The notes below the pieces were generated by a model. It worked only from the letters and a program-made list of their open reading frames with translations. It had not been told where the DNA came from and did no database searches. The translations under genes and the position numbers were made by a program. Below, piece after piece: positions 1 to 21,051 of a DNA stretch of 21,051 bases. The DNA comes from a virus (taxonomy: Duplodnaviria > Heunggongvirae > Uroviricota > Caudoviricetes). Each line of letters starts with the position of its first letter. Position 1 is the stretch's first letter. The stretch lies in IMG/VR virus record IMGVR_UViG_2579779002_000005; one strand, 5' to 3'.

Positions 1-910
1 GCGTGAGCAGTACGGGGTCGGACCGGTATGCAGCGAACTGCATATTGCCCCGTCAACGTATTACCATTGTCAGCAACAGCGACATCATCCGGATAAACGC
101 AGTGCCCGTGCGCAGCACGACGACTGGCTGAAGAGAGAGATACAGCGCGTATACGATGAAAATCATCAGGTGTACGGTGTGCGTAAAGTCTGGCGTCAGT
201 TGTTACGGGAAGGAATCAGGGTGGCCAGATGTACAGTGGCGCGCCTCATGGCGGTTATGGGACTTGCCGGTGTTCTCCGGGGTAAAAAGGTCCGCACTAC
301 CGTCAGCCGGAAAACCGTTGCCACAGGTGACCGCGTAAACCGTCAGTTCGTGGCAGAACGACCTGACCAGCTGTGGGTGGCTGATTTTACTTACGTCAGC
401 ACATGGCAGGGCTTCGTCTATGTGGCGTTTATCATTGATGTGTTTGCCGGATACATCGTGGGGTGGCGGGTCTCATCGTCTATGGAAACGACATTCGTGC
501 TGGATGCGCTGGAGCAGGCGTTGTGGGCCCGTCGTCCGTCTGGCACCATCCATCACAGCGATAAAGGCTCTCAGTATGTGTCACTGGCCTATACGGAGCG
601 ACTAAAAGAAGCCGGATTACTGGCATCAACAGGGAGTACAGGCGACTCGTATGACAACGCGATGGCTGAGAGCATCAATGGTCTTTACAAAGCGGAGGTA
701 ATACACCGTAAGAGCTGGAAAAACCGTGCAGAAGTGGAACTGGCCACACTAACGTGGGTGGACTGGTATAACAATCGACGATTGCTGGGAAGGCTGGGCC
801 ATACTCCTCCGGCAGAAGCAGAAAAAGCTTATTATGCTTCCATCGGAAACGATGATCTGGCAGCCTGAGTTCACAGATAAAACACTCTCCAGGAAACCCG
901 GGGCGGTTCA
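1..910 (+). mobile_element. IS3-family insertion sequence, right-hand portion (window begins inside the element); terminal inverted repeat at about 869..910 ending ...CGGTTCA
   Basis: The transposase ORF runs to the window start. The 42 bp after its stop read TGAACCGCCCCGGGTTTCCTGGAGAGTGTTTTATCTGTGAAC on the reverse complement, a TG...CA terminus typical of IS3-family ends and close to what I recall for IS629/IS1203 (from memory, not searched). Confidence 0.8.
2..868 (+). CDS. IS3-family transposase OrfB (DDE integrase domain), 5' partial at window edge
   Basis: Open frame from base 2 with no stops before the first Met at 170. DDE triad context is visible: VADFTYV, HSDKGSQY and DNAMAESINGLYKAE. 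Confidence 0.85.
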   Translation, partial: REQYGVGPVCSELHIAPSTYYHCQQQRHHPDKRSARAQHDDWLKREIQRVYDENHQVYGVRKVWRQLLREGIRVARCTVARLMAVMGLAGVLRGKKVRTTVSRKTVATGDRVNRQFVAERPDQLWVADFTYVSTWQGFVYVAFIIDVFAGYIVGWRVSSSMETTFVLDALEQALWARRPSGTIHHSDKGSQYVSLAYTERLKEAGLLASTGSTGDSYDNAMAESINGLYKAEVIHRKSWKNRAEVELATLTWVDWYNNRRLLGRLGHTPPAEAEKAYYASIGNDDLAA

Positions 911-1004
911 CAGTTTGGTAATTGACTAATCATGAGTCGCAACTCCCTAATCAGTTTGCTAAAATCAATCAAGGCAGCCTCCCATAGCTTACTGCCATAA
1001 AAAC

Positions 1005-1038
1005 AAAACCCCGCTTGCTGCCAACAAACGGGGTTTTT
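1005..1038 (-). terminator. Rho-independent terminator downstream of the endolysin gene (T/A runs on both sides, possibly bidirectional)
   Basis: aaccccg ... cggggtt stem followed by a T-run on the plus strand and preceded by AAAACAAAA, which gives a T-run on the minus strand. Confidence 0.5.
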
Positions 1039-1127
1039 ACTTTTATTCACTTACATTTTGCCAGTTCGCAGGATTTCGTGTTATCCGTCCGCCTTGGCCA
1101 ACGTCATTGATTAGCAAAATATTCTGC

Positions 1128-1661
1128 TTATCTGTCGATTCCCCAGCACGCCAGCGCGCTCTCCTGGTCACGACGGGATACCTGACCGTAACAGTTATTT
1201 GAGCGAATACGGCAGTCTCTGCCACCGTCCTTAATCCACCAGCGAATCGCCTCACACGCTCCCCTGCGATCACCTGCATTAATTCGTTTATAAAACGTCG
1301 ACGGAAAACACTTACCGGGGCCAATGTTGTACGGACAGAATGACGCGATCCCCGCTTTCTGGGGTTCACTCAATGGCACTCTGATGTTTTTCTCCACCCA
1401 TGCCAGCGCCTTATCACGCTCAATGGCGTTAACCCGGTCGCATTTTTCCTTCGACAACTTCATGCCCGGAACGACAGGTTTGCCATCCACCAGGATGGCA
1501 CCGCGGCAGATGGTCCAGATACCCGCGCCATCACGGTATGCCGTGGTGTGGTTACCTTCCTTTTCATCCAGAAACTGGTCGAGAATGTCAGGCGCAGGCG
1601 CACCAGCGGCAATCAGCGCCAGAACGGCAGCCGACAGGCCGTATCTGATTTTTGCGTTCAT
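1128..1661 (-). CDS. R: SAR endolysin (T4-lysozyme-like, GH24)
   Basis: 177 aa. N-terminal hydrophobic signal-anchor-like stretch YGLSAAVLALIAAGAPAP, then EGNHTTAYRDGAGIWTICRG matching the T4 lysozyme E-x8-D-x5-T catalytic pattern (E35, D44, T50). Sits downstream of the holin in the lysis cassette. Confidence 0.9.
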   Translation of the reverse strand: MNAKIRYGLSAAVLALIAAGAPAPDILDQFLDEKEGNHTTAYRDGAGIWTICRGAILVDGKPVVPGMKLSKEKCDRVNAIERDKALAWVEKNIRVPLSEPQKAGIASFCPYNIGPGKCFPSTFYKRINAGDRRGACEAIRWWIKDGGRDCRIRSNNCYGQVSRRDQESALACWGIDR

Positions 1662-2719: not shown

Positions 2720-4576
2720 TTATGATGATGCTGGTGCATTTATCTCCAGCACCAGACTTTCTATCTCAACGCCATACGCTGCATTTTTGGTAATATCCGT
2801 CAGCGTCAGCGCATTCAGCCCCAGTGTCAGACTGTCTTTTATGACCTGGAATGCCGGGCCAGCCACTCCATTCAGTTTCGGAGTAACCGTGGCACTGCCG
2901 GCGGTGAACACCAGCTCCAGCGTCTGCCAGTCGTTACTGTAATTCCCGAACTCGCCCAACTTTGTGTTTCCTGCTTTCCTGTGATGCATCAGATTCAGTT
3001 TGCCGTCTGTGGTCTGGGTGAAGAACGACATCAGGAACGGGTTACCAGTCCCGGTCATCGCCACGACGTCAGGTAACGCTACATCGGTATACAGATAAAT
3101 TCCCAGACCGAACTGGTTGTTGGTCAGTGCGCCTGACAGTCGAAACTTACAGCTCAGTCTGCCACCCCGTGTCAGCAGGGAGACTGCGTCATCCACCGGA
3201 TGCATCAGGGACCAGGTTTTATTGCTCTGCTTGGTAACCTTAAACACACCATCTTCCAGCGCAACACTGCCGCCGGTGATGGTCCAGCCCTGCGCAGCAG
3301 CCTCTCCGGCTGTCGGCAGCAGGGAGACTGTACGAACGGATGTGTCACCATCAGACGGCCCCGATGGCGTGTCGCCGCCGGGCGAGGGTTTAATCTCCGG
3401 TGCGGTACCGCTGATGAAGGCGCTGGTTCGACCAACTGCGTTCAGAATAGCGGTTGCCAGGCGATCCGAAATAATGCCCCTGCGCGCCCATGAACTGAAA
3501 TGTGTCGGACGATTTGACGATACCCAATTACCATTACTACGGGATTGCGCGCCGTAATAACCTGCATCAGCAATATCCGGGTCTTCTGCCGGTAAGTTGG
3601 TGGGCGTGTTGTTGCCGTTACCGTCGGTCATGAACGGCACAAAGAAAACGTTGTCGCTCTCCCTGTTTTTGTACGCGCCGTAGACGGAGTCATACTGTGT
3701 GCCGTATGTGTTTTTCCAGTAATACGTCGTGTCGCCACAAATCCACGGTACAACTGCAGCACTGCCGCCATGGCACTGCGCCGCCAGCCCGGCAAGGTCA
3801 GCACGGAACTGCTGTACCATTGCAAGAAATGCTGCTGGCTGCTGGGCGTAACTGGCATTCGTCATATCGAATTCCCCCTGCATCCAGCATATCGCCAGCA
3901 AAACGTTTTTCGGGTTTTTCTGCAATGCTGCCTTCGTGCGGAAAAGCAGATCCTGATATAATGGTTTACCCACACCCCAGCGTGCCGAATCCTGGCTGGC
4001 CCCCGTGTCCGCACTGAATGTCCCCTCCGCGCCCTGGGTGAATGCCGAACCACCACGACAGCATGGTACCAGCAGGATCCCCGCATTATTAGGGATATAC
4101 GGAAGCAGTTTTTTGGCAATATGTAAGCCCTGTCCGACACAGCCGTACTGCCCTTTGCTCAGGTCAGCCCGGGGATGGTTAATCGTACTCATATCCTGAA
4201 CATCATGCAGACAATGGTCAGCAGGAATGATGTCGTTAAATACGCATACTTCACCACCGGGAGTCACTGTGTTACGACGGGCCAGTTGCTTAATGCGCGG
4301 ATGGGGCGCATCGTATGAATCCGGAAGCGGAAGCCCTTCACCGTAAGCCATGGCATTGGACTGCCCGGCCAGTACGATGACGTAGTACCACTCCGGCTCA
4401 GTTGCACCACTGACGACCACATCACCTTCTGCTGCAATCGCCTGCATCAGGGTATAAGGGGTTATGGCCACCGGACTACCAAACGGCTGCCAGCCCTCTT
4501 TCAGTTTATGTGTCAGCTTTTCCGCAAGATCTGACGGCGACGCCGCCCTGACAACATCATAGTGTTTAAATGCCAT
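2720..4576 (-). CDS. nanS-p: Prophage sialate O-acetylesterase (NanS-p-like, SGNH/SASA esterase domain)
   Basis: 618 aa with a GQSN nucleophile block (VIVLAGQSNAMAYGEG). Located between the tRNA cluster and the holin, as in Stx-type lambdoid phages. Confidence 0.75.
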   Translation of the reverse strand: MAFKHYDVVRAASPSDLAEKLTHKLKEGWQPFGSPVAITPYTLMQAIAAEGDVVVSGATEPEWYYVIVLAGQSNAMAYGEGLPLPDSYDAPHPRIKQLARRNTVTPGGEVCVFNDIIPADHCLHDVQDMSTINHPRADLSKGQYGCVGQGLHIAKKLLPYIPNNAGILLVPCCRGGSAFTQGAEGTFSADTGASQDSARWGVGKPLYQDLLFRTKAALQKNPKNVLLAICWMQGEFDMTNASYAQQPAAFLAMVQQFRADLAGLAAQCHGGSAAVVPWICGDTTYYWKNTYGTQYDSVYGAYKNRESDNVFFVPFMTDGNGNNTPTNLPAEDPDIADAGYYGAQSRSNGNWVSSNRPTHFSSWARRGIISDRLATAILNAVGRTSAFISGTAPEIKPSPGGDTPSGPSDGDTSVRTVSLLPTAGEAAAQGWTITGGSVALEDGVFKVTKQSNKTWSLMHPVDDAVSLLTRGGRLSCKFRLSGALTNNQFGLGIYLYTDVALPDVVAMTGTGNPFLMSFFTQTTDGKLNLMHHRKAGNTKLGEFGNYSNDWQTLELVFTAGSATVTPKLNGVAGPAFQVIKDSLTLGLNALTLTDITKNAAYGVEIESLVLEINAPASS

Positions 4577-4769
4577 GAATCCTCCCGGCCGGGATAATAT
4601 TGTGAGTAAAATGAGGAGCGGGCTGAAGTCCGGAAGTTACAGGACAATGGCAGAAGAGAGACAACAGCCCGCAATACGAAAAAGGCCGCGCTATTGCGCA
4701 GAGTGATTACTGTCGGATATTATTCGCCAGCTGAAATATTACTTCACGTTTTATTGTTTATTCCTTGCC

Positions 4770-4798
4770 GCCCGCGTCTCCCAGCGCGGGCTTTTTTT
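4770..4798 (+). terminator. Plus-strand intrinsic terminator with no obvious upstream plus-strand gene
   Basis: gcccgcg tctcccag cgcgggc hairpin (7-bp GC stem) followed by TTTTTTT. Confidence 0.5.
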
Positions 4799-4806
4799 GC
4801 CCACAA

Positions 4807-5044
4807 GAAAACCCCTCCGGAGAGGGGCTAAAGCCGCGTATCTGTATCATCATGCACATGGTGCCGGGTGCCTCCCGGTGAGTTCAGCCCGGTGCCACTA
4901 AACCCGCGTCATTCTCGTTTTGATAATCAGAGATTATACCGTCACCAGTCGCCCCTCCGCTCAGGGGGATTCACCATGCGAAATTTTTTTAACAAATGCC
5001 CAGTCTGACAGGCAACTGTCAACTTACTGAATTGTGAGCAACAT
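4807..5044. repeat. Copy 1 of an imperfect ~220-240 bp direct repeat (non-coding module)
   Basis: Shares with copy 2 the blocks cccctccggagaggggct, catggtgccgggtgcctcccggtga, gcccctccgc.cagggggattcaccatgc, ttttaacaaa and acagtcaac..ctgaattgtgag. Confidence 0.7.
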
Positions 5045-5292
5045 AGCATTTAACGGGGAACCTGTTTTCTGCAGTAAAAAGGCCCACCGGAGCGGATGGG
5101 CCTGGAAGGATAGCGGTCATGTGATGCCGGTTTCCCGGTAACTCAGCACCGGTATCTGAGTCAACGTTTTCTCTACTGGGTCATTTCCGATACGCCCTGC
5201 CTGCTGACAGGCTTTCATCACATCTGAAAATATAGCACCCTGACTGATACTGTAGTACCTAAGGTTCCAGAAACTGTGATGTATCCGGCACA

Positions 5293-5512
5293 GAAAAGCC
5301 CCTCCGGAGAGGGGCTGGAGAGTGGCGCTATGTGCCATTGCATGGTGCCGGGTGCCTCCCGGTGAATTCAGTACCAGCACCTGAATCCGCGATTATCCCA
5401 TATACCTACTCGCTGATTGCCCCTCCGCACAGGGGGATTCACCATGCCAGTTTCTTTTAACAAACTCCCCGCAAACCAGACAACAGTCAACCGCCTGAAT
5501 TGTGAGACATTT
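5293..5512. repeat. Copy 2 of the imperfect direct repeat
   Basis: Same conserved blocks as copy 1. On the minus strand its gcccctc tccg gaggggc hairpin is followed by TTTTCT, so it looks like a terminator. Confidence 0.7.
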
Positions 5513-5551
5513 AAAAAAAAGCCCGCAAAAGCGAGCCAGTGAAAATAAGTG

Positions 5552-5628
5552 TGGCGCGTTGTACTGGATTCGAACCAGTGACCGATTGCTTAGAAGGCAA
5601 TTGCTCTGTCCGGCTGAGCTAACAACGC
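5552..5628 (-). tRNA. tRNA-Arg (anticodon UCU)
   Basis: Minus-strand sequence folds as a cloverleaf: acceptor GCGTTGT/ACAACGC, D stem GCTC/GAGC, anticodon stem ATTGC/GCAAT with loop CTTCTAA, T arm ACTGG-TTCGAAT-CCAGT, encoded CCA. Confidence 0.85.
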
Positions 5629-5641
5629 AGGATACAGATAA

Positions 5642-5718
5642 TGGACCGCCTTCGGGGACCCGAACTCCGCGCAACCAGCTTCGAAGGCTGGCGCTCTTTC
5701 CTGATGAGCTAATGGCGG
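5642..5718 (-). tRNA. tRNA-Arg (anticodon UCG), slightly degenerate
   Basis: Cloverleaf with anticodon stem CCAGC/GCTGG and loop CTTCGAA. It has one acceptor mismatch (A6-A67), one T-stem mismatch and T-loop TTCGGGT (G at position 58). The anticodon loop is palindromic, so strand is assigned from the neighbouring tRNAs. Confidence 0.6.
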
Positions 5719-5725
5719 TATGTGA

Positions 5726-5801
5726 TGGTGGCCCTTGCTGGATTTGAACCAGCGACCTGGCGATTATGAGTCGCTCGCTCTCACCACTGAGCTAAAGGGC
5801 C
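5726..5801 (-). tRNA. tRNA-Ile2-like (anticodon CAU, ileX/ileZ-like; could be read as Met)
   Basis: Perfect acceptor GGCCCTT/AAGGGCC, D arm GCTC-AGTGGTGA-GAGC, anticodon loop CTCATAA, T arm GCTGG-TTCAAAT-CCAGC, CCA end. Closely resembles E. coli ileX as I recall it. Confidence 0.85.
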
Positions 5802-5850
5802 GGGAGCAGAATAATAATGGTGCGTAATTAATTCTGCAATCTCATCCGTT

Positions 5851-6900
5851 TCAAACGATTAAATCCTGAACTTCCCTGACTGTCTGCTCAAAACGTCCGG
5901 TCTCCAGCTCAACACCAATCGCACGACGCCCCAGTGCCATCGCCGCTTTTACCGTTGAACCCGACCCCATGAAAAAATCCGCAACCAGATCACCAGGACG
6001 GCTACTTGCGCTGATTATCTGCTGCAGCATTTCTGCCGGTTTTTCGCACGGATGTTTCCCGGGATAGAACTGCACCGGTTTATGCGTCCACACATCGGTA
6101 TACGGCACCTGCACCGTCACGCCAAAATACCGCCGCAGATGTTTATATTCACTCAGCAGCTCCGCATACTGCCGGTTCAGTGAGGTATACGTATCCACCA
6201 GCTGGTGGTGGAGCTTTTCCAGTTCACCACGCCGATGCTTCTCTTCTGCCACCCGGGCAAACAGCGCCTGTAATTTCAGATAATCGCTTTCATTCGGTAG
6301 CTGCCACTGACTGGCACTGAACCAGTGCGACACCATGTTTTTCTTTCCTGTGGCATCTGCAATCTGTTTTGCCGTTATCCCCAAGGCCGCGCGCGCATCA
6401 CGAAAGTAAGAAATCAGCGGGGCCATCACATGCTGTTTCAGTGCACTGCCCTTCGCCGCATACCCGGCATCTTTCGGACGATACGGCCCCTGATAATGTT
6501 CCGCGAACAGAATGCGCTCTGTGGCGGGGAAATACGCCCGCAGGCTTTCCTTGTTGCACCCGTTCCAGCGTCCGGACGGCTTCGCCCAGATAATATGGTT
6601 CAGCACACTGAAGCGTTCACGCATCATGATTTCGATATCAGATGCCAGGCGATGACCACAGAACAGGTAAAGACTTCCGGCAGGTTTCAGCACCCGCCAG
6701 AACTGCGCCAGACACTGGTCCAGCCATTTCAGGTAATCATCGTCGCCCTTCCACTGGTTATCCCAGCCCTCAGGCTTCACTTTAAAGTACGGCGGGTCCG
6801 TGACTATCAGGTCAACAGAATTTTCGGGTAACGACCGGATAAATTCCAGGCAGTCGGCGTTGATTAACTCACAACTGGATATTTTTACAGTATTAAGCAT
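5851..6900 (-). CDS. DNA N6-adenine (amino) methyltransferase, no cognate restriction enzyme evident
   Basis: 349 aa with the catalytic DPPY motif near the N-terminus (LIVTDPPYF) and an AdoMet-binding FFMGSGST motif near the C-terminus. No nuclease gene is adjacent. Confidence 0.85.
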   Translation of the reverse strand: MLNTVKISSCELINADCLEFIRSLPENSVDLIVTDPPYFKVKPEGWDNQWKGDDDYLKWLDQCLAQFWRVLKPAGSLYLFCGHRLASDIEIMMRERFSVLNHIIWAKPSGRWNGCNKESLRAYFPATERILFAEHYQGPYRPKDAGYAAKGSALKQHVMAPLISYFRDARAALGITAKQIADATGKKNMVSHWFSASQWQLPNESDYLKLQALFARVAEEKHRRGELEKLHHQLVDTYTSLNRQYAELLSEYKHLRRYFGVTVQVPYTDVWTHKPVQFYPGKHPCEKPAEMLQQIISASSRPGDLVADFFMGSGSTVKAAMALGRRAIGVELETGRFEQTVREVQDLIV

Positions 6901-7474: not shown

Positions 7475-8296
7475 CTATCGCGTTACCCTCTTTAACTGCC
7501 GCTCCGCCCATGCCTCTTCAATGTCAAACCGAACCACCAACGTATCGTAAAAGCGTTTCACTGATTTTTTCCACGTATCAAGCGTGATAGCACTCGTCAC
7601 TTTGCGTATGGCATTAAATGCCTCCGTTGATGGTAGTCTTTCACAGCCACGACCACCACAACGCTGGCAGTCTCTGATAACAGGCATACCACGTTTTACC
7701 GACTCTTCACGATGAATGGCAACACCACGCCCACGGCAGTCTTTACAGGCAGTGGAAATCTCCCCCTTCCCTTTACATTCAGGACAAGAAACTTTCACCA
7801 CCTCCCGAATTTTTTTCCATTCTTCCCAGTAAGACGGATACACACCTTTCGTACACTTTGCCCATACTGGCGGCTTGCCATCCGGATACTGAACCTTGTT
7901 TGTAAAAACTTCGCCTTCAATAAATTTTTCCCCTCGGCAACAGGGGCACTGCTTTTTACTCGCTGCGCTGCGGGCATAATCCTCAAAAGCGTACGAAGCC
8001 ATAATGCGCATCACTACCGGTTTTATTTCTGCCGGAAGTTTTCTCAACGCCGCCACACGATCGCACCGACTGAGTGCATAATCTGCCAGTAATTCTGTTG
8101 CCCGCGCCCTGTCATTCATACTGATGCCCATTTTCCCCAGGAACGCAGAAAACCCCATCTCAGCCCGATTCTGTGTCATGCCCTGCGCGGCCATCACATC
8201 AGTGATACTCAGCGCATCTTTCGACGTTGAGGCCGATGCATCAGTCAGGCCGGGGGATTTTGGGGAGTAGTATTTCGGTAAATCTTCCAGTTTCAT
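7475..8296 (-). CDS. Putative late-gene antiterminator (Q-like) with four DnaJ-type CxxCxGxG zinc-finger repeats
   Basis: 273 aa containing CPCCRGEK, CPECKGKG, CKDCRGRG and CQRCGGRG. Its start overlaps the rusA stop (ATGA), and it occupies the Q position of the DUF1364-DUF968-rusA-Q order. Confidence 0.5.
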   Translation of the reverse strand: MKLEDLPKYYSPKSPGLTDASASTSKDALSITDVMAAQGMTQNRAEMGFSAFLGKMGISMNDRARATELLADYALSRCDRVAALRKLPAEIKPVVMRIMASYAFEDYARSAASKKQCPCCRGEKFIEGEVFTNKVQYPDGKPPVWAKCTKGVYPSYWEEWKKIREVVKVSCPECKGKGEISTACKDCRGRGVAIHREESVKRGMPVIRDCQRCGGRGCERLPSTEAFNAIRKVTSAITLDTWKKSVKRFYDTLVVRFDIEEAWAERQLKRVTR

Positions 8297-10420: not shown

Positions 10421-12685
10421 TTATACGGAAACTGGCACACGAGCAGGCAATGGATAGTGAGCCCAGTTATTAGCATTTAAAGCTCTTACGCCATCAGCAT
10501 AAACTTGTGTTTTTCCATCTAATGATTTTAAAGTTACTACAATAGTTACAGGTAAAGGCTCCATTAAGGCCGGTTCATTCGCTCTCAACGTTGTTTTAGC
10601 TTGAAGAGCCCAGTTACCCGAAGTAATTCCTTTATTAAATGCCTTGCGATGAATTTTTACTGGTGACCACTTTCCACCATGCTCAATTTGAGCTCTCTCA
10701 TATCCAGATTGACCGTTTTCTCCTTCCATAGGTACTTTTCCTTTTATAGTATTATTCTCAATTAAGCCAAAACTTAGCTCTACGTTCGCGCGAACATATT
10801 CACTGCCGGCATTAGGGTTCAGTGGTGGTGCATATGCAGCAGTAATTACAATCTCACCTTTAAATTTTCCATTTTGAATAAGTGCCGATGGTATGGGATA
10901 GTTTTCCTTTCTCCACCTCACCCCAGGAACCAAGAATGTTTGGAAAATCAGAGTAAACCTATCATCACTATCATATAAGGTCTCAATAACCTCATTAGGA
11001 ATTCCCGCTCCCAAATAGCGTCTTTCACTTGGCGAGTAATCAGGAGAAGATAATTGAGCGGAATGAATTAATAATGCTTTAATCAATGATGGTGAAACAT
11101 TAAAGTCTGAATTAGTGGCTATTCTCTGCCATGTATGCGCAGCTAAACTTGCCACAATTGGAGCAGCAAAACTAGTACCAAAATTAGAGCAAAGCCTATT
11201 ATCTGGCCCTACGACCTTTAAACTGCTTGCTCCTACATTCCAAGGTCTATGAACCCCACCGCCAGCATGGATTATATCTGGCTTTGGAGTAAATACAGGC
11301 CCAGGGCCACGACGAGTATATGGTGTCGGTGTTCCAATTTCACTTAAAGCATCATTAGCTTCCATATGAGAAACTGAACCAACTGTTAGTGCTCGGACTG
11401 ACTCTCCAGGAGAGGAAATTAAATCAGCACCTCCAAGCGGATCAGGATTTGGCCATGTACGTATAGGTTCATCTACATAATTACCTGCAGCAACTACAAA
11501 CAAAATACCAAATTTATCGCTGAGCCGATCTAACTCCATCGCAAAATCACTAAACATCTGCTCATTACATGGTCCGCCTCCCAAAGATAAATTCCAGACT
11601 TTTATATCTGGTCTTTTATTTACAGCATCTGCTAGCCTCAGAATTAAATCTGATATATAAGATCCATTTTCATCTAAAGCACAAACATCATGGATTTTAG
11701 ATTTTGTATCAGGAATCCATGGATGATTGTCATTTAAAAAATGAGCGCCTGATATCAATGAAGACACCATAGTCCCATGTTCATAACTCGTATCAGGAGG
11801 AATTACGTATGTTTCCCTACTCACTACCCAAGGAGTAATTGTTGCCGCGATGGGGCTTACCCCAGTGTCAAATACAGCAACAATGGGTAATTCTTCTGAT
11901 GGTACGGGAAAGCTATTTGTTTCAATGCCAACAGAATCACTTACACTAACCGGGAATGCTGAATATTTTGGTTCTGGAATTAACGTTCTTATACCCGGGT
12001 AATCAATGAGAATGTCTAATATATATCTATCATTTGGGGATAAATCCATTATCCTTAATAAGGGAAGACCACATTTTGGTCTAATCTCATCATATTTAAC
12101 TCCGTGTTGTTCTAATATAGAAATAACGTTTTCATAGTTGTTGTAAGTTGCATCTTCACCTGTGTACTCAAATAGTCGTACAAGGATGTTTGATGATTCA
12201 AACAAACCATCAGTGCCTCCTGGAACCTTCCTATTCTCATCCCAAGGTTCAATGCGCTCAATCGCGCTTAGATTAGCCAAAATCGCTTTAATATTCCGAT
12301 GTAAAATGACTGACTCTAATACGTCAAAACAGCCGGCATGAGCAGCAACCAACATTTCATCTATTTTGGCATGACCGGCATTTTGCAATCCAGCCTCTTG
12401 AGCAATTTTGTTCGGCCTATGCGTTTTGGCTATTCCCTGGTCTCTTAATTTGAAAACCAAAGTACCCAAGCTTCCAGGGTACTCTGAAAGTTTGGATTCT
12501 AAATAATGTTTACTGGTTGTTAAATTTCTTACTAGCCCTTGTCTATATTCGGCTGTTACATCAACCAATACCTTTGCCCCACCGCCAGCGTTTACTATTG
12601 CACCCAAGTCACTACTGGAAAAAGGGATTCTTAACATTGGGTTTGTAACTTTTGCGTTACTAAACTGTGTACCCCTTCTGCTCAT
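10421..12685 (-). CDS. Subtilisin-like serine protease (peptidase S8) with large N- and C-terminal extensions; probably cytoplasmic
   Basis: 754 aa. Catalytic residues in D-H-S order: VAVFD273TG, YEH303GT, oxyanion AAGN402Y, GTS505FAAP. No N-terminal signal peptide is apparent. The ORF overlaps the upstream ATPase gene by 26 bp. Confidence 0.85.
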   Translation of the reverse strand: MSRRGTQFSNAKVTNPMLRIPFSSSDLGAIVNAGGGAKVLVDVTAEYRQGLVRNLTTSKHYLESKLSEYPGSLGTLVFKLRDQGIAKTHRPNKIAQEAGLQNAGHAKIDEMLVAAHAGCFDVLESVILHRNIKAILANLSAIERIEPWDENRKVPGGTDGLFESSNILVRLFEYTGEDATYNNYENVISILEQHGVKYDEIRPKCGLPLLRIMDLSPNDRYILDILIDYPGIRTLIPEPKYSAFPVSVSDSVGIETNSFPVPSEELPIVAVFDTGVSPIAATITPWVVSRETYVIPPDTSYEHGTMVSSLISGAHFLNDNHPWIPDTKSKIHDVCALDENGSYISDLILRLADAVNKRPDIKVWNLSLGGGPCNEQMFSDFAMELDRLSDKFGILFVVAAGNYVDEPIRTWPNPDPLGGADLISSPGESVRALTVGSVSHMEANDALSEIGTPTPYTRRGPGPVFTPKPDIIHAGGGVHRPWNVGASSLKVVGPDNRLCSNFGTSFAAPIVASLAAHTWQRIATNSDFNVSPSLIKALLIHSAQLSSPDYSPSERRYLGAGIPNEVIETLYDSDDRFTLIFQTFLVPGVRWRKENYPIPSALIQNGKFKGEIVITAAYAPPLNPNAGSEYVRANVELSFGLIENNTIKGKVPMEGENGQSGYERAQIEHGGKWSPVKIHRKAFNKGITSGNWALQAKTTLRANEPALMEPLPVTIVVTLKSLDGKTQVYADGVRALNANNWAHYPLPARVPVSV

Positions 12686-13814
12686 ATGCTCCTGACTCCT
12701 TCAGAATGTTTGAAATTACTCTTGATGTAAGTTTGTACAAATTAGCAAGAACTCTGATAGAAAATAATTTTTTATCTTTAGAACGTAACCAACGAATTTC
12801 ATCTTCGTAAGTGCTTAAATTTACACCTTCCATAAGCGATTGCGCAAGATACAAACGCCTATACAATTTATGGTGATTTATCACACTTGCACCTTCAATA
12901 ACTGCATCCCTACGTGCATCCAAGCTCACCTGTTCAATTATTGCTCCGGATAATCCCTCCGATTTTCTTGATAAATCACTTAAATCTAGATCGCTACATA
13001 TCATATTCTTTAAACGATTTTTCCAAATTAACTCTCTCTGATGTATGTCAGGCAGAGGCATTGGAATTCTGAAGCTAAATCGCCTCCAGATTGCAGGATC
13101 CAGAAGTTGCTCATGGTTAGTTGAGGCAATAATTACCGTATCCTCTGATGCCGCATCCATATTCTGCAATAGTGAAATGACAACTCGCTGAAGCTCACCT
13201 ATATCTCTCTCATTACCTCTTGCTCCAGCTAAAGCATCAAATTCGTCTAAAAAAAGCACTGATGGCCTCTGCATTACATAATCGAAAACCTGTCTAAGAT
13301 TTTTGCTGGTTTGTCCCAATAAACTACTAATCAAAGTATCGCAACGCACTGTAAGAAGTGGAAAATCTAAGCGGGTAGCGATGTACTTAGATAACATAGT
13401 CTTACCTGTTCCTGGCTTTCCATACACGAGCATACGACTCGGCAATGCTGCATCAGCTTTAACAAACTCATCATAACGTTGAACATTAGTGATAAACTCT
13501 TCAACACGGGTACTGATTGCTGCAGGCAGAAAAATCTCTGAACTGTCTAATTTAGGATAACTGACATCAACAGTGTTGAGTCGACTATCAATATCTACCG
13601 GTAATGAGCCCAGAGATATCCCACCTCCAGCCCTTTGAGCTCCTGCCAACGCCTGGGGAGCTCTAAGCAACCTTTCTCTTATCATTCTGGCTTGCTTGAC
13701 CTCCCCTTTTTGTTCGAGCTTATCTGCCAGCAACCCAGCATAATTACTAGCCATCGAAGCATTTGCCTTTGTTGCACCTTCAATGATTTTTAACACTTCT
13801 GATAAATAATCCAT
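12660..13814 (-). CDS. AAA+ ATPase (classical AAA clade)
   Basis: 384 aa. Walker A GKPGTGKT (K138), Walker B VLFLDEFD, sensor-1 IIASTNH, arginine-finger region DPAIWRRF. GGGAG ribosome-binding site upstream of the ATG. Confidence 0.85.
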   Translation of the reverse strand: MDYLSEVLKIIEGATKANASMASNYAGLLADKLEQKGEVKQARMIRERLLRAPQALAGAQRAGGGISLGSLPVDIDSRLNTVDVSYPKLDSSEIFLPAAISTRVEEFITNVQRYDEFVKADAALPSRMLVYGKPGTGKTMLSKYIATRLDFPLLTVRCDTLISSLLGQTSKNLRQVFDYVMQRPSVLFLDEFDALAGARGNERDIGELQRVVISLLQNMDAASEDTVIIASTNHEQLLDPAIWRRFSFRIPMPLPDIHQRELIWKNRLKNMICSDLDLSDLSRKSEGLSGAIIEQVSLDARRDAVIEGASVINHHKLYRRLYLAQSLMEGVNLSTYEDEIRWLRSKDKKLFSIRVLANLYKLTSRVISNILKESGAYEQKGYTV

Positions 13815-20284: not shown

Positions 20285-21051
20285 ATGAGTAAAGTCTTTA
20301 TTTGCGCCGCCATTCCGGACGAACAGGCAATAAAGGAAGAAGGTGCCGTCGCTGTAGCCACTGCCATTGAAGCCGGTGATGAACGTCGCGCCCGCGCAAA
20401 ATTTCACTGGCAATTCCTGGAACATTATCCGGCTGCTCAGGACTGCGCTTATAAATTTCTTGTCTGCGAGGATAAACCCGGTATACCCCGCCCTGCCCTC
20501 GATTCCTGGGATGCTGAATATATGCAGGAAAACCGCTGGGATGAGGCGTCTGCTTCCTTTGTCCCGGTCGAGACTGAATCCGATCCGATGAACGTCACTT
20601 TTGACAACCTAGCCCCTGAAGTACAGAACGCTGTCATGGTTAAGTTCGACACATGTGAAAACATCACTGTTGATATGGTGATTAGCGCACAGGAATTGTT
20701 GCAGGAAGACATGGCAACATTCGACGGCCATATCGTTGAAGCGTTGATGAAAATGCCAGAAGTTAACGCTATGTATCCGGAGCTTAAGCTGCATGCCATC
20801 GGGTGGGTTAAGCATAAATGTAAGCCTGGTGCCAAATGGCCCGAAATTCAGGCAGAGATGCGCATCTGGAAAAAACGTCGCGAAGGTGAACGCAAGGAAG
20901 CCGGAAAATACACGTCTGTTGTTGATCTCGCCCGCGCCAGAGCCAATCAACAGCACACTGAAAATTCAACAGGAAAAATCAACCCGGTCATTGCTGCCAT
21001 TCATCGCGAATACAAGCAGACATGGAAAACACTGGATGACGAACTGGCCTA
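20285..21051 (+). CDS. Hypothetical phage early protein, 3' partial (runs off the window)
   Basis: Open frame from the ATG at 20285 (MSKVFICAAIPDEQ...) to the window end, at least 255 codons, with a TGAGGT Shine-Dalgarno 9 nt upstream. Absent from the ORF track because there is no stop in the window. Overlapping minus-strand ORFs look spurious. Confidence 0.55.
   Translation, partial: MSKVFICAAIPDEQAIKEEGAVAVATAIEAGDERRARAKFHWQFLEHYPAAQDCAYKFLVCEDKPGIPRPALDSWDAEYMQENRWDEASASFVPVETESDPMNVTFDNLAPEVQNAVMVKFDTCENITVDMVISAQELLQEDMATFDGHIVEALMKMPEVNAMYPELKLHAIGWVKHKCKPGAKWPEIQAEMRIWKKRREGERKEAGKYTSVVDLARARANQQHTENSTGKINPVIAAIHREYKQTWKTLDDELA

Follow-up and report, generated by a model that had tools for sequence, protein, structure and literature searches.

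The lysis genes of phage 21 and of the Stx phages form a cassette that comprises a class II holin (S21), a SAR-type endolysin, and embedded Rz/Rz1 spanin genes. In shaken cultures, cells lyse without spanins as long as no millimolar divalent cations are added (PMC6139136). In EHEC, the insertion sequence IS629 is known to inactivate genes and to give rise to deletions, which are promoted by the IS-excision enhancer protein (PMC9943667). The prophage Sp5 of E. coli O157:H7 Sakai has an IS629 within its late operon, between stx2 and S, and despite this element it still yields infectious, transferable phage (PMC2669165).

The stretch of DNA analyzed here, referred to as the window, spans 21,051 nucleotides and carries a lambdoid prophage whose late genes are encoded by the minus strand. 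An IS629/IS1203-type element stands at its left edge, in the same relative orientation as the IS629 of Sp5. As in the cassettes of phage 21 and the Stx phages, the holin belongs to PF04971 and the lysozyme to PF00959, and uninterrupted relatives of the prophage have an Rz of PF03245 with an embedded Rz1 of PF06085. In contrast to those cassettes, a YdfR (DUF1327) gene separates S from R, R and Rz are set apart by a terminator and four small hydrophobic ORFs, and the window itself is without a spanin. Probably, an IS629-type element entered a small ORF of the R-Rz spacer by simple insertion, and the genes for spanins and packaging are situated just off the window.

The element at the left edge and the adjoining late genes

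The features of the left edge and of the late region are the following.

1 to 910, plus strand: 3' part of an IS629/IS1203-type element of the IS3 family (IS nucleotides 401-1310), from alignment to annotated IS629
2 to 868, plus strand: orfB, encoding a DDE transposase, C-terminal 288 of 295 residues with the frame open, from translation and NCBIfam
871 to 933, minus strand: truncated small ORF, seven native codons (MISQLPN, 933-913) followed by 13 IS-derived codons and a stop, from translation
886 to 910, plus strand: right terminal inverted repeat of the IS, ending ...GGTTCA (reverse complement TGAACC...), from the IS629 annotation in AP000422 and the ends of full copies
911 to 913, no strand: CAG, presumed right copy of a 3-bp target-site duplication, the left copy of which would lie outside the window
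943 to 948, minus strand: Shine-Dalgarno sequence AGGGAG with a 9-nt spacer to the ATG (933-931), read from the sequence
1005 to 1037, minus strand: hairpin resembling an intrinsic terminator, with a T run after it, immediately past R, from folding and conservation
1128 to 1661, minus strand: endolysin R, a phage lysozyme of 177 aa with an Ala/Gly-rich hydrophobic N-terminal segment, Pfam PF00959, 84 bits
2005 to 2349, minus strand: YdfR-family (DUF1327) gene between holin and endolysin, Pfam PF07041, 145 bits
2354 to 2569, minus strand: P21-type class II holin of 71 aa, for which M1 and M4 are both candidate starts, Pfam PF04971, 112.5 bits
2720 to 4576, minus strand: NanS-p-like SASA esterase
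5552 to 5801, minus strand: three tRNA genes with the anticodons CAT, TCG, and TCT (CAT is tRNA-Ile according to PGAP)
5851 to 6900, minus strand: DNA methyltransferase
7475 to 8296, minus strand: antiterminator Q

The first 910 nucleotides of the window align with the IS629 of phage VT2-Sakai (Sp5; AP000422), an element that is annotated all through E. coli O157:H7, at 99.0% identity, with 9 mismatches over 911 aligned nucleotides. The alignment stops at the annotated 25-bp right inverted repeat of that element, the end of which corresponds to window position 910. Full copies of the same IS variant are found elsewhere; they are 1310 nt long, differ from the 910 nt of the window by one mismatch, and encode a 108-aa orfA (PF01527) upstream of orfB. 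Window position 1 corresponds to nucleotide 401 of these copies, and the left 400 nt of the element, with orfA and the left inverted repeat, are outside the window. The boundary between IS and phage at 910 reads ...GGGGCGGTTCA|CAGTTTGG. The segment 886-910 is the IS629 right inverted repeat, and its end ...GGTTCA agrees with the terminal signature 5'-TG...CA-3'.

OrfB matches the NCBIfam model NF033516 (transpos_IS3) with 310 bits against a cut-off of 160, and the Pfam domains HTH_21 and rve were found on the copy of orfB in L025, an assembly that carries the same junction. The transposase, the right inverted repeat, and the nucleotide identity place the element in the IS629/IS1203 group of the IS3 family, in agreement with the initial annotation, which had placed the right end of an IS3-family element at 910. 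Other features of this group are a programmed -1 frameshift between orfA and orfB and a target-site duplication of 3-4 bp. The right inverted repeat is that of the IS629 in Sp5, and both elements have a DDE (rve) OrfB. Over the 3' 910 nt that are visible here, the element differs from the Sakai copy in a few substitutions, with three amino-acid changes in OrfB, and it occupies another insertion site. The transposase gene is oriented opposite to the late genes, and a promoter scan found no hybrid outward promoter at the IS end.

To the right of the element, R is annotated as a lysozyme or rrrQ in relatives, and its resemblance to SAR-type endolysins in the Ala/Gly-rich N terminus (YGLSAAVLALIAAGAPAP) suggests that it belongs to this type. 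On the minus strand, GTTTTTAT comes after the hairpin at 1005-1037. The 66-nt stretch that contains it folds with -25.8 kcal/mol (z = -4.6), and none of 200 shuffled sequences folds as well, which bears out the terminator previously noted directly after the endolysin gene. Because uninterrupted relatives have both the terminator and the spacer between R and Rz, both are native to the prophage.

The hairpin is invariant even where the adjoining downstream sequence is unrelated (O157 Z1815), and the terminator after R acts as a fixed border beyond which modules are exchanged. Between holin and endolysin, a plus-strand ORF of 90 aa (1767-2039, phrog_2411) converges on the minus-strand YdfR/DUF1327 gene (2005-2349) and overlaps its 3' end by 35 nt. 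This pair is conserved and is annotated in many relatives.

The late region on the minus strand (2720-5801) has the organization of a Stx phage, with Q, a methylase, three tRNAs, and a NanS-p-like esterase; the interval of roughly 1 kb that separates the tRNAs from the esterase is free of stx genes. The minus strand at 10421-13814 encodes an S8-family peptidase of 754 aa together with an AAA ATPase of 384 aa. The pair is annotated in the prophage of E. coli TUM14664 as the anti-phage pair IteS/IteA, and it sits between the replication genes and the DUF968-RusA-Q genes.

Position of the spanin genes in uninterrupted relatives

The absence of a spanin gene was confirmed for the window: tblastn searches of its 21 kb with the Rz and Rz1 of relatives returned noise (best E = 0.014 and 0.18, respectively), and a lipobox signal was found in none of its ORFs. 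A comparison with an intact relative, which the initial annotation had proposed, places this result in context. At least 14 complete E. coli genomes match the flank from 911 to 1700 at 100% identity, and E. coli TUM14664 contains the same prophage without the IS, with 15 mismatches and no gaps relative to window 911-21051 (99.92% identity). Ten of these 15 differences fall within a 436-nt segment close to the window's right end (20547-20982), a distribution that resembles a small patch of recombination more than scattered mutations.

In TUM14664, R is followed by the terminator, four ORFs of 31, 43, 51, and 28 aa, Rz (155 aa), TonB_C, YlcI, HNH, TerS, TerL, and capsid genes. The same order after R is found in strain 102651, L001, and L002, and Rz never directly follows R in these prophages, in TUM14664, or in many draft contigs. 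The Rz of the relatives matches PF03245 with 168.8 bits. Their Rz1 (61 aa, lipobox VSAC) matches PF06085 with 78.1 bits and is encoded in another frame inside Rz, where it spans 0.47-0.87 of the Rz length, a position typical of embedded spanins (PMC6139136).

In the coordinates of L001, the insertion point falls at 6001 and the start of Rz at 5575, about 425 nt further on. In this type of prophage the spanins are situated ~0.64 kb past R, behind the native terminator and the four small ORFs. The spanins are missing from the window because the window begins inside the IS. The initial annotation had gone on to propose that spanin and downstream functions were probably lost. This part of its interpretation is not supported, since the place of the spanin and packaging genes in the intact form is out of view; the truncation by the IS, the terminator, and the lack of a spanin within the window are retained.

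A search with the allele of the SASA esterase retrieved uninterrupted prophages only. Among the prophages reached in this way, L011, L013, and L014 are otherwise near-identical but carry internal deletions, by which the lysis or HNH region directly adjoins tail genes. This type of prophage thus decays often and independently of the IS.

Origin and consequences of the insertion

Four other assemblies, which come from different projects, share this junction between IS and phage (L025-L028): GCA_000627475.1, GCA_000627455.1 (E. coli 1-182-04_S3_C2), GCA_053192715.1, and an ENA metagenome scaffold. All four share the same rare iteS allele, by which they were searched; 18 contigs, all under 50 kb, were read for this allele. 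The only contig that crosses the IS is JJLS01000171.1 (GCA_000627475.1), which was compared up to window position 421. None of the complete E. coli genomes carries the junction. An exact 37-mer of the right junction gave no match in the genome_contigs, viral_contigs, and metagenome_contigs collections, and a predicted junction-spanning ORF of 37 aa had no exact match in the collection. Exact-sequence look-ups of the OrfB variants and of the downstream proteins reached either further IS copies or cassettes that are intact.

IS629 is a multicopy element, and repeats of this kind cause breaks or collapses in draft assemblies, so that a repeated IS joined to the wrong flank has to be considered. 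The identical junction in four other assemblies from different projects, one of them a metagenome scaffold, makes such an artefact highly improbable and indicates that the insertion is inherited in a small lineage. The IS copy of L025 (GCA_000627475.1) has a patch of 13 substitutions relative to the IS of the window (L025 22079-22145, equivalent to window 541-607). This patch would fit an assembly problem within the IS; it suggests either that IS copies have undergone gene conversion or that the consensus of the draft assembly contains an artefact.

In the sequence of events that we favor, an IS629/IS1203-type element of 1310 bp entered a lambdoid prophage that is stx-negative and has a lysis cassette of the P21 type; it transposed between R and Rz/Rz1 and landed after codon 7 of a 31-codon ORF. 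At the insertion point the uninterrupted relative reads TTTC-CAG-TTTGG. IS629-type copies elsewhere are flanked by 3-bp duplications, and by 4 bp in Sakai. The insertion would accordingly be a simple one with a 3-bp CAG duplication, the left junction of which would lie outside the window. At that junction the phage sequence ...AAATTTCCAG is predicted to stand immediately before TGAACCGCCCCGG, so that the sequence would run ...TTTCCAG|TGAACCGCC... into the IS; on the plus strand of the window, ...GACCAGCAAAAATTTCCAG|TGAACCGCCCCGGAAATCC... is predicted. Beyond the left end of the IS, the remaining small ORFs (43, 51, and 28 aa), Rz/Rz1, and the terminase genes would follow. A recent insertion is consistent with the rest of the window, which matches the TUM14664 copy at the level given above, with no gaps.

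The main rival is an IS-associated event of another kind, in which an adjacent deletion or recombination between IS copies removed the small ORFs, Rz/Rz1, and possibly the packaging genes, to leave a prophage defective in lysis or packaging. Insertions of the same element in the same R-Rz interval bear on both explanations. Such insertions are found in Z1815, CEC13002, ESDR8, 7.1_Anguil, strain 108, and O157:H7 F3113, often inside a small ORF upstream of Rz, and they differ from the present one in insertion point and flanks. Among these complete genomes, five of the six insertions have perfect 3-bp duplications: CAA in Z1815, CCG in CEC13002, GCC in ESDR8, AGT in 7.1_Anguil, and GTT in strain 108. 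Rz is intact just past the IS in four of the five. In strain 108 (L051 1602-2911), the IS with its GTT duplication lies at codon 2 of Rz.

The IS1203 of F3113 (L050 1602-2911) is next to R, has no duplication, and adjoins a truncated TerL; its right-hand site is that of strain ESDR8. The arrangement in F3113 points to an IS-associated deletion of the segment from the spanins to TerS, and it provides a precedent for a deletion at the present locus. Of nine full copies of the window's IS variant that lie elsewhere, seven are flanked by perfect 3-bp duplications, and the two without a duplication would also be compatible with deletion. Deletions by IS629, promoted by the IS-excision enhancer protein, are known (PMC9943667), and some relatives of the prophage, such as L011, L013, and L014, are visibly decayed. 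However, most of the comparable insertions are simple, and these base rates (five of six in the R-Rz interval and seven of nine at other sites) favor a simple insertion here. The near-identity to TUM14664 without gaps also argues against a deletion, and nothing in the window points to one. We regard the deletion as unlikely and the simple insertion as the likely origin of the junction.

All of the copies next to R that were surveyed are oriented as that of the window. This was dropped as evidence of an orientation bias, since the query, which consisted of the 3' end of the IS and R, recovers that orientation only.

The simple insertion would separate R from the rest of the late genes by 1.3 kb of antisense IS. 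In lambdoid phages, Q antiterminates late transcription, as is established for lambda, and this transcription already has to pass the native terminator after R. Q-antiterminated transcription would be expected to read through the IS as well, in which case the prophage is not necessarily defective. The suggestion that it may be defective describes a possible outcome but is unsupported, given the precedent of Sp5 and the lysis of shaken cultures without spanins.

The interrupted ORF and the small ORFs between R and Rz

The ORF that is interrupted by the IS was described in the initial annotation as a minus-strand ORF with an AGGGAG Shine-Dalgarno sequence (943-948) and an ATG at 933 that is cut after seven codons (MISQLPN), and both the sequence and the intact 31-codon relative agree with this description. 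The ORF enters the IS at codon 8 and continues as a 20-aa fusion peptide, MISQLPNCEPPRVSWRVFYL, with its stop at 871. In uninterrupted relatives the native gene has 31 codons and encodes the hydrophobic peptide MISQLPNWKFLLVWSIPFLWVVSQLIVAIKG. The insertion certainly destroys the 31-codon ORF, and the conserved core from W8 onward is gone.

Whether the ORF is a functional gene is a separate matter, and the IS may instead have entered an effectively non-coding spacer, which would be compatible with either a simple insertion or a deletion. PGAP mostly leaves the 31-codon ORF uncalled, or calls a 70-aa version with a GTG start that extends across the terminator. The intact 31-aa peptide, seven codons of which remain in the window, gives a weak match to phrog_6632 (E = 6e-5, 23.9 bits), and the ORF is shortened to 24 codons in the relative L019. 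On the other side, the version in L021/L022, which is ~72% identical in DNA, keeps the Shine-Dalgarno sequence as GGGAG as well as the ATG and the frame (MAEKLSTWKFILIW...IRWW). At the same location, phage PhiR5_1, which was isolated on E. coli C, carries an annotated ORF that is likewise exactly 31 codons long; its codons 8-31 show 6 synonymous and 3 non-synonymous differences, and the two stop codons differ as well (TAG against TAA). Taken as a whole, the comparative evidence that the truncated ORF is a gene appears moderate, and a non-coding spacer is possible but doubtful.

Matches of the 31-aa peptide to Salmonella phages (50-53% identity, E about 0.01) were dropped as homologues. In SEN34, the one context that was checked, the match sits amid baseplate genes, so that these look like chance hydrophobic matches; as such they are in line with a spacer that is not coding.

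The interrupted ORF is the first of an array of small hydrophobic ORFs, which lies on the minus strand of L001 at 5577-6023, to the left of the equivalent of window position 911, and which is also found in L015, L016, L018-L022, and L024. The ORFs of 31, 43, 51, and 28 aa correspond to phrog_6632, phrog_4906, phrog_3246/1115, and phrog_4493, which are PHROGs without assigned function. Their number and order differ between prophages, and the ORFs are shuffled among phages. The ORF that adjoins Rz ends with ...IRWW in most of the versions examined, and in L001 its stop is 1 nt before the ATG of Rz, a spacing that suggests translational coupling. For the 43-aa ORF, pN/pS is about 0.25-0.36 relative to the common allele but is not below 1 among closer pairs, which is a mixed signal.

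One tentative idea, which we consider rather improbable, is that these small ORFs encode real micro-membrane proteins of the lysis cassette that are shuffled between phages and could tune the action of pinholin, endolysin, and spanin. The lineage that carries the IS would then be a natural knock-out of the first of them.

IS629-type insertions in E. coli lambdoid prophages are well documented, including in and around the lysis genes. The insertion described here is an ordinary event with nothing new in kind; it is not evidence of a crippled phage and by itself matters little. For prophages of this type, a spanin that is missing at the edge of a window should not be read as the loss of a gene.
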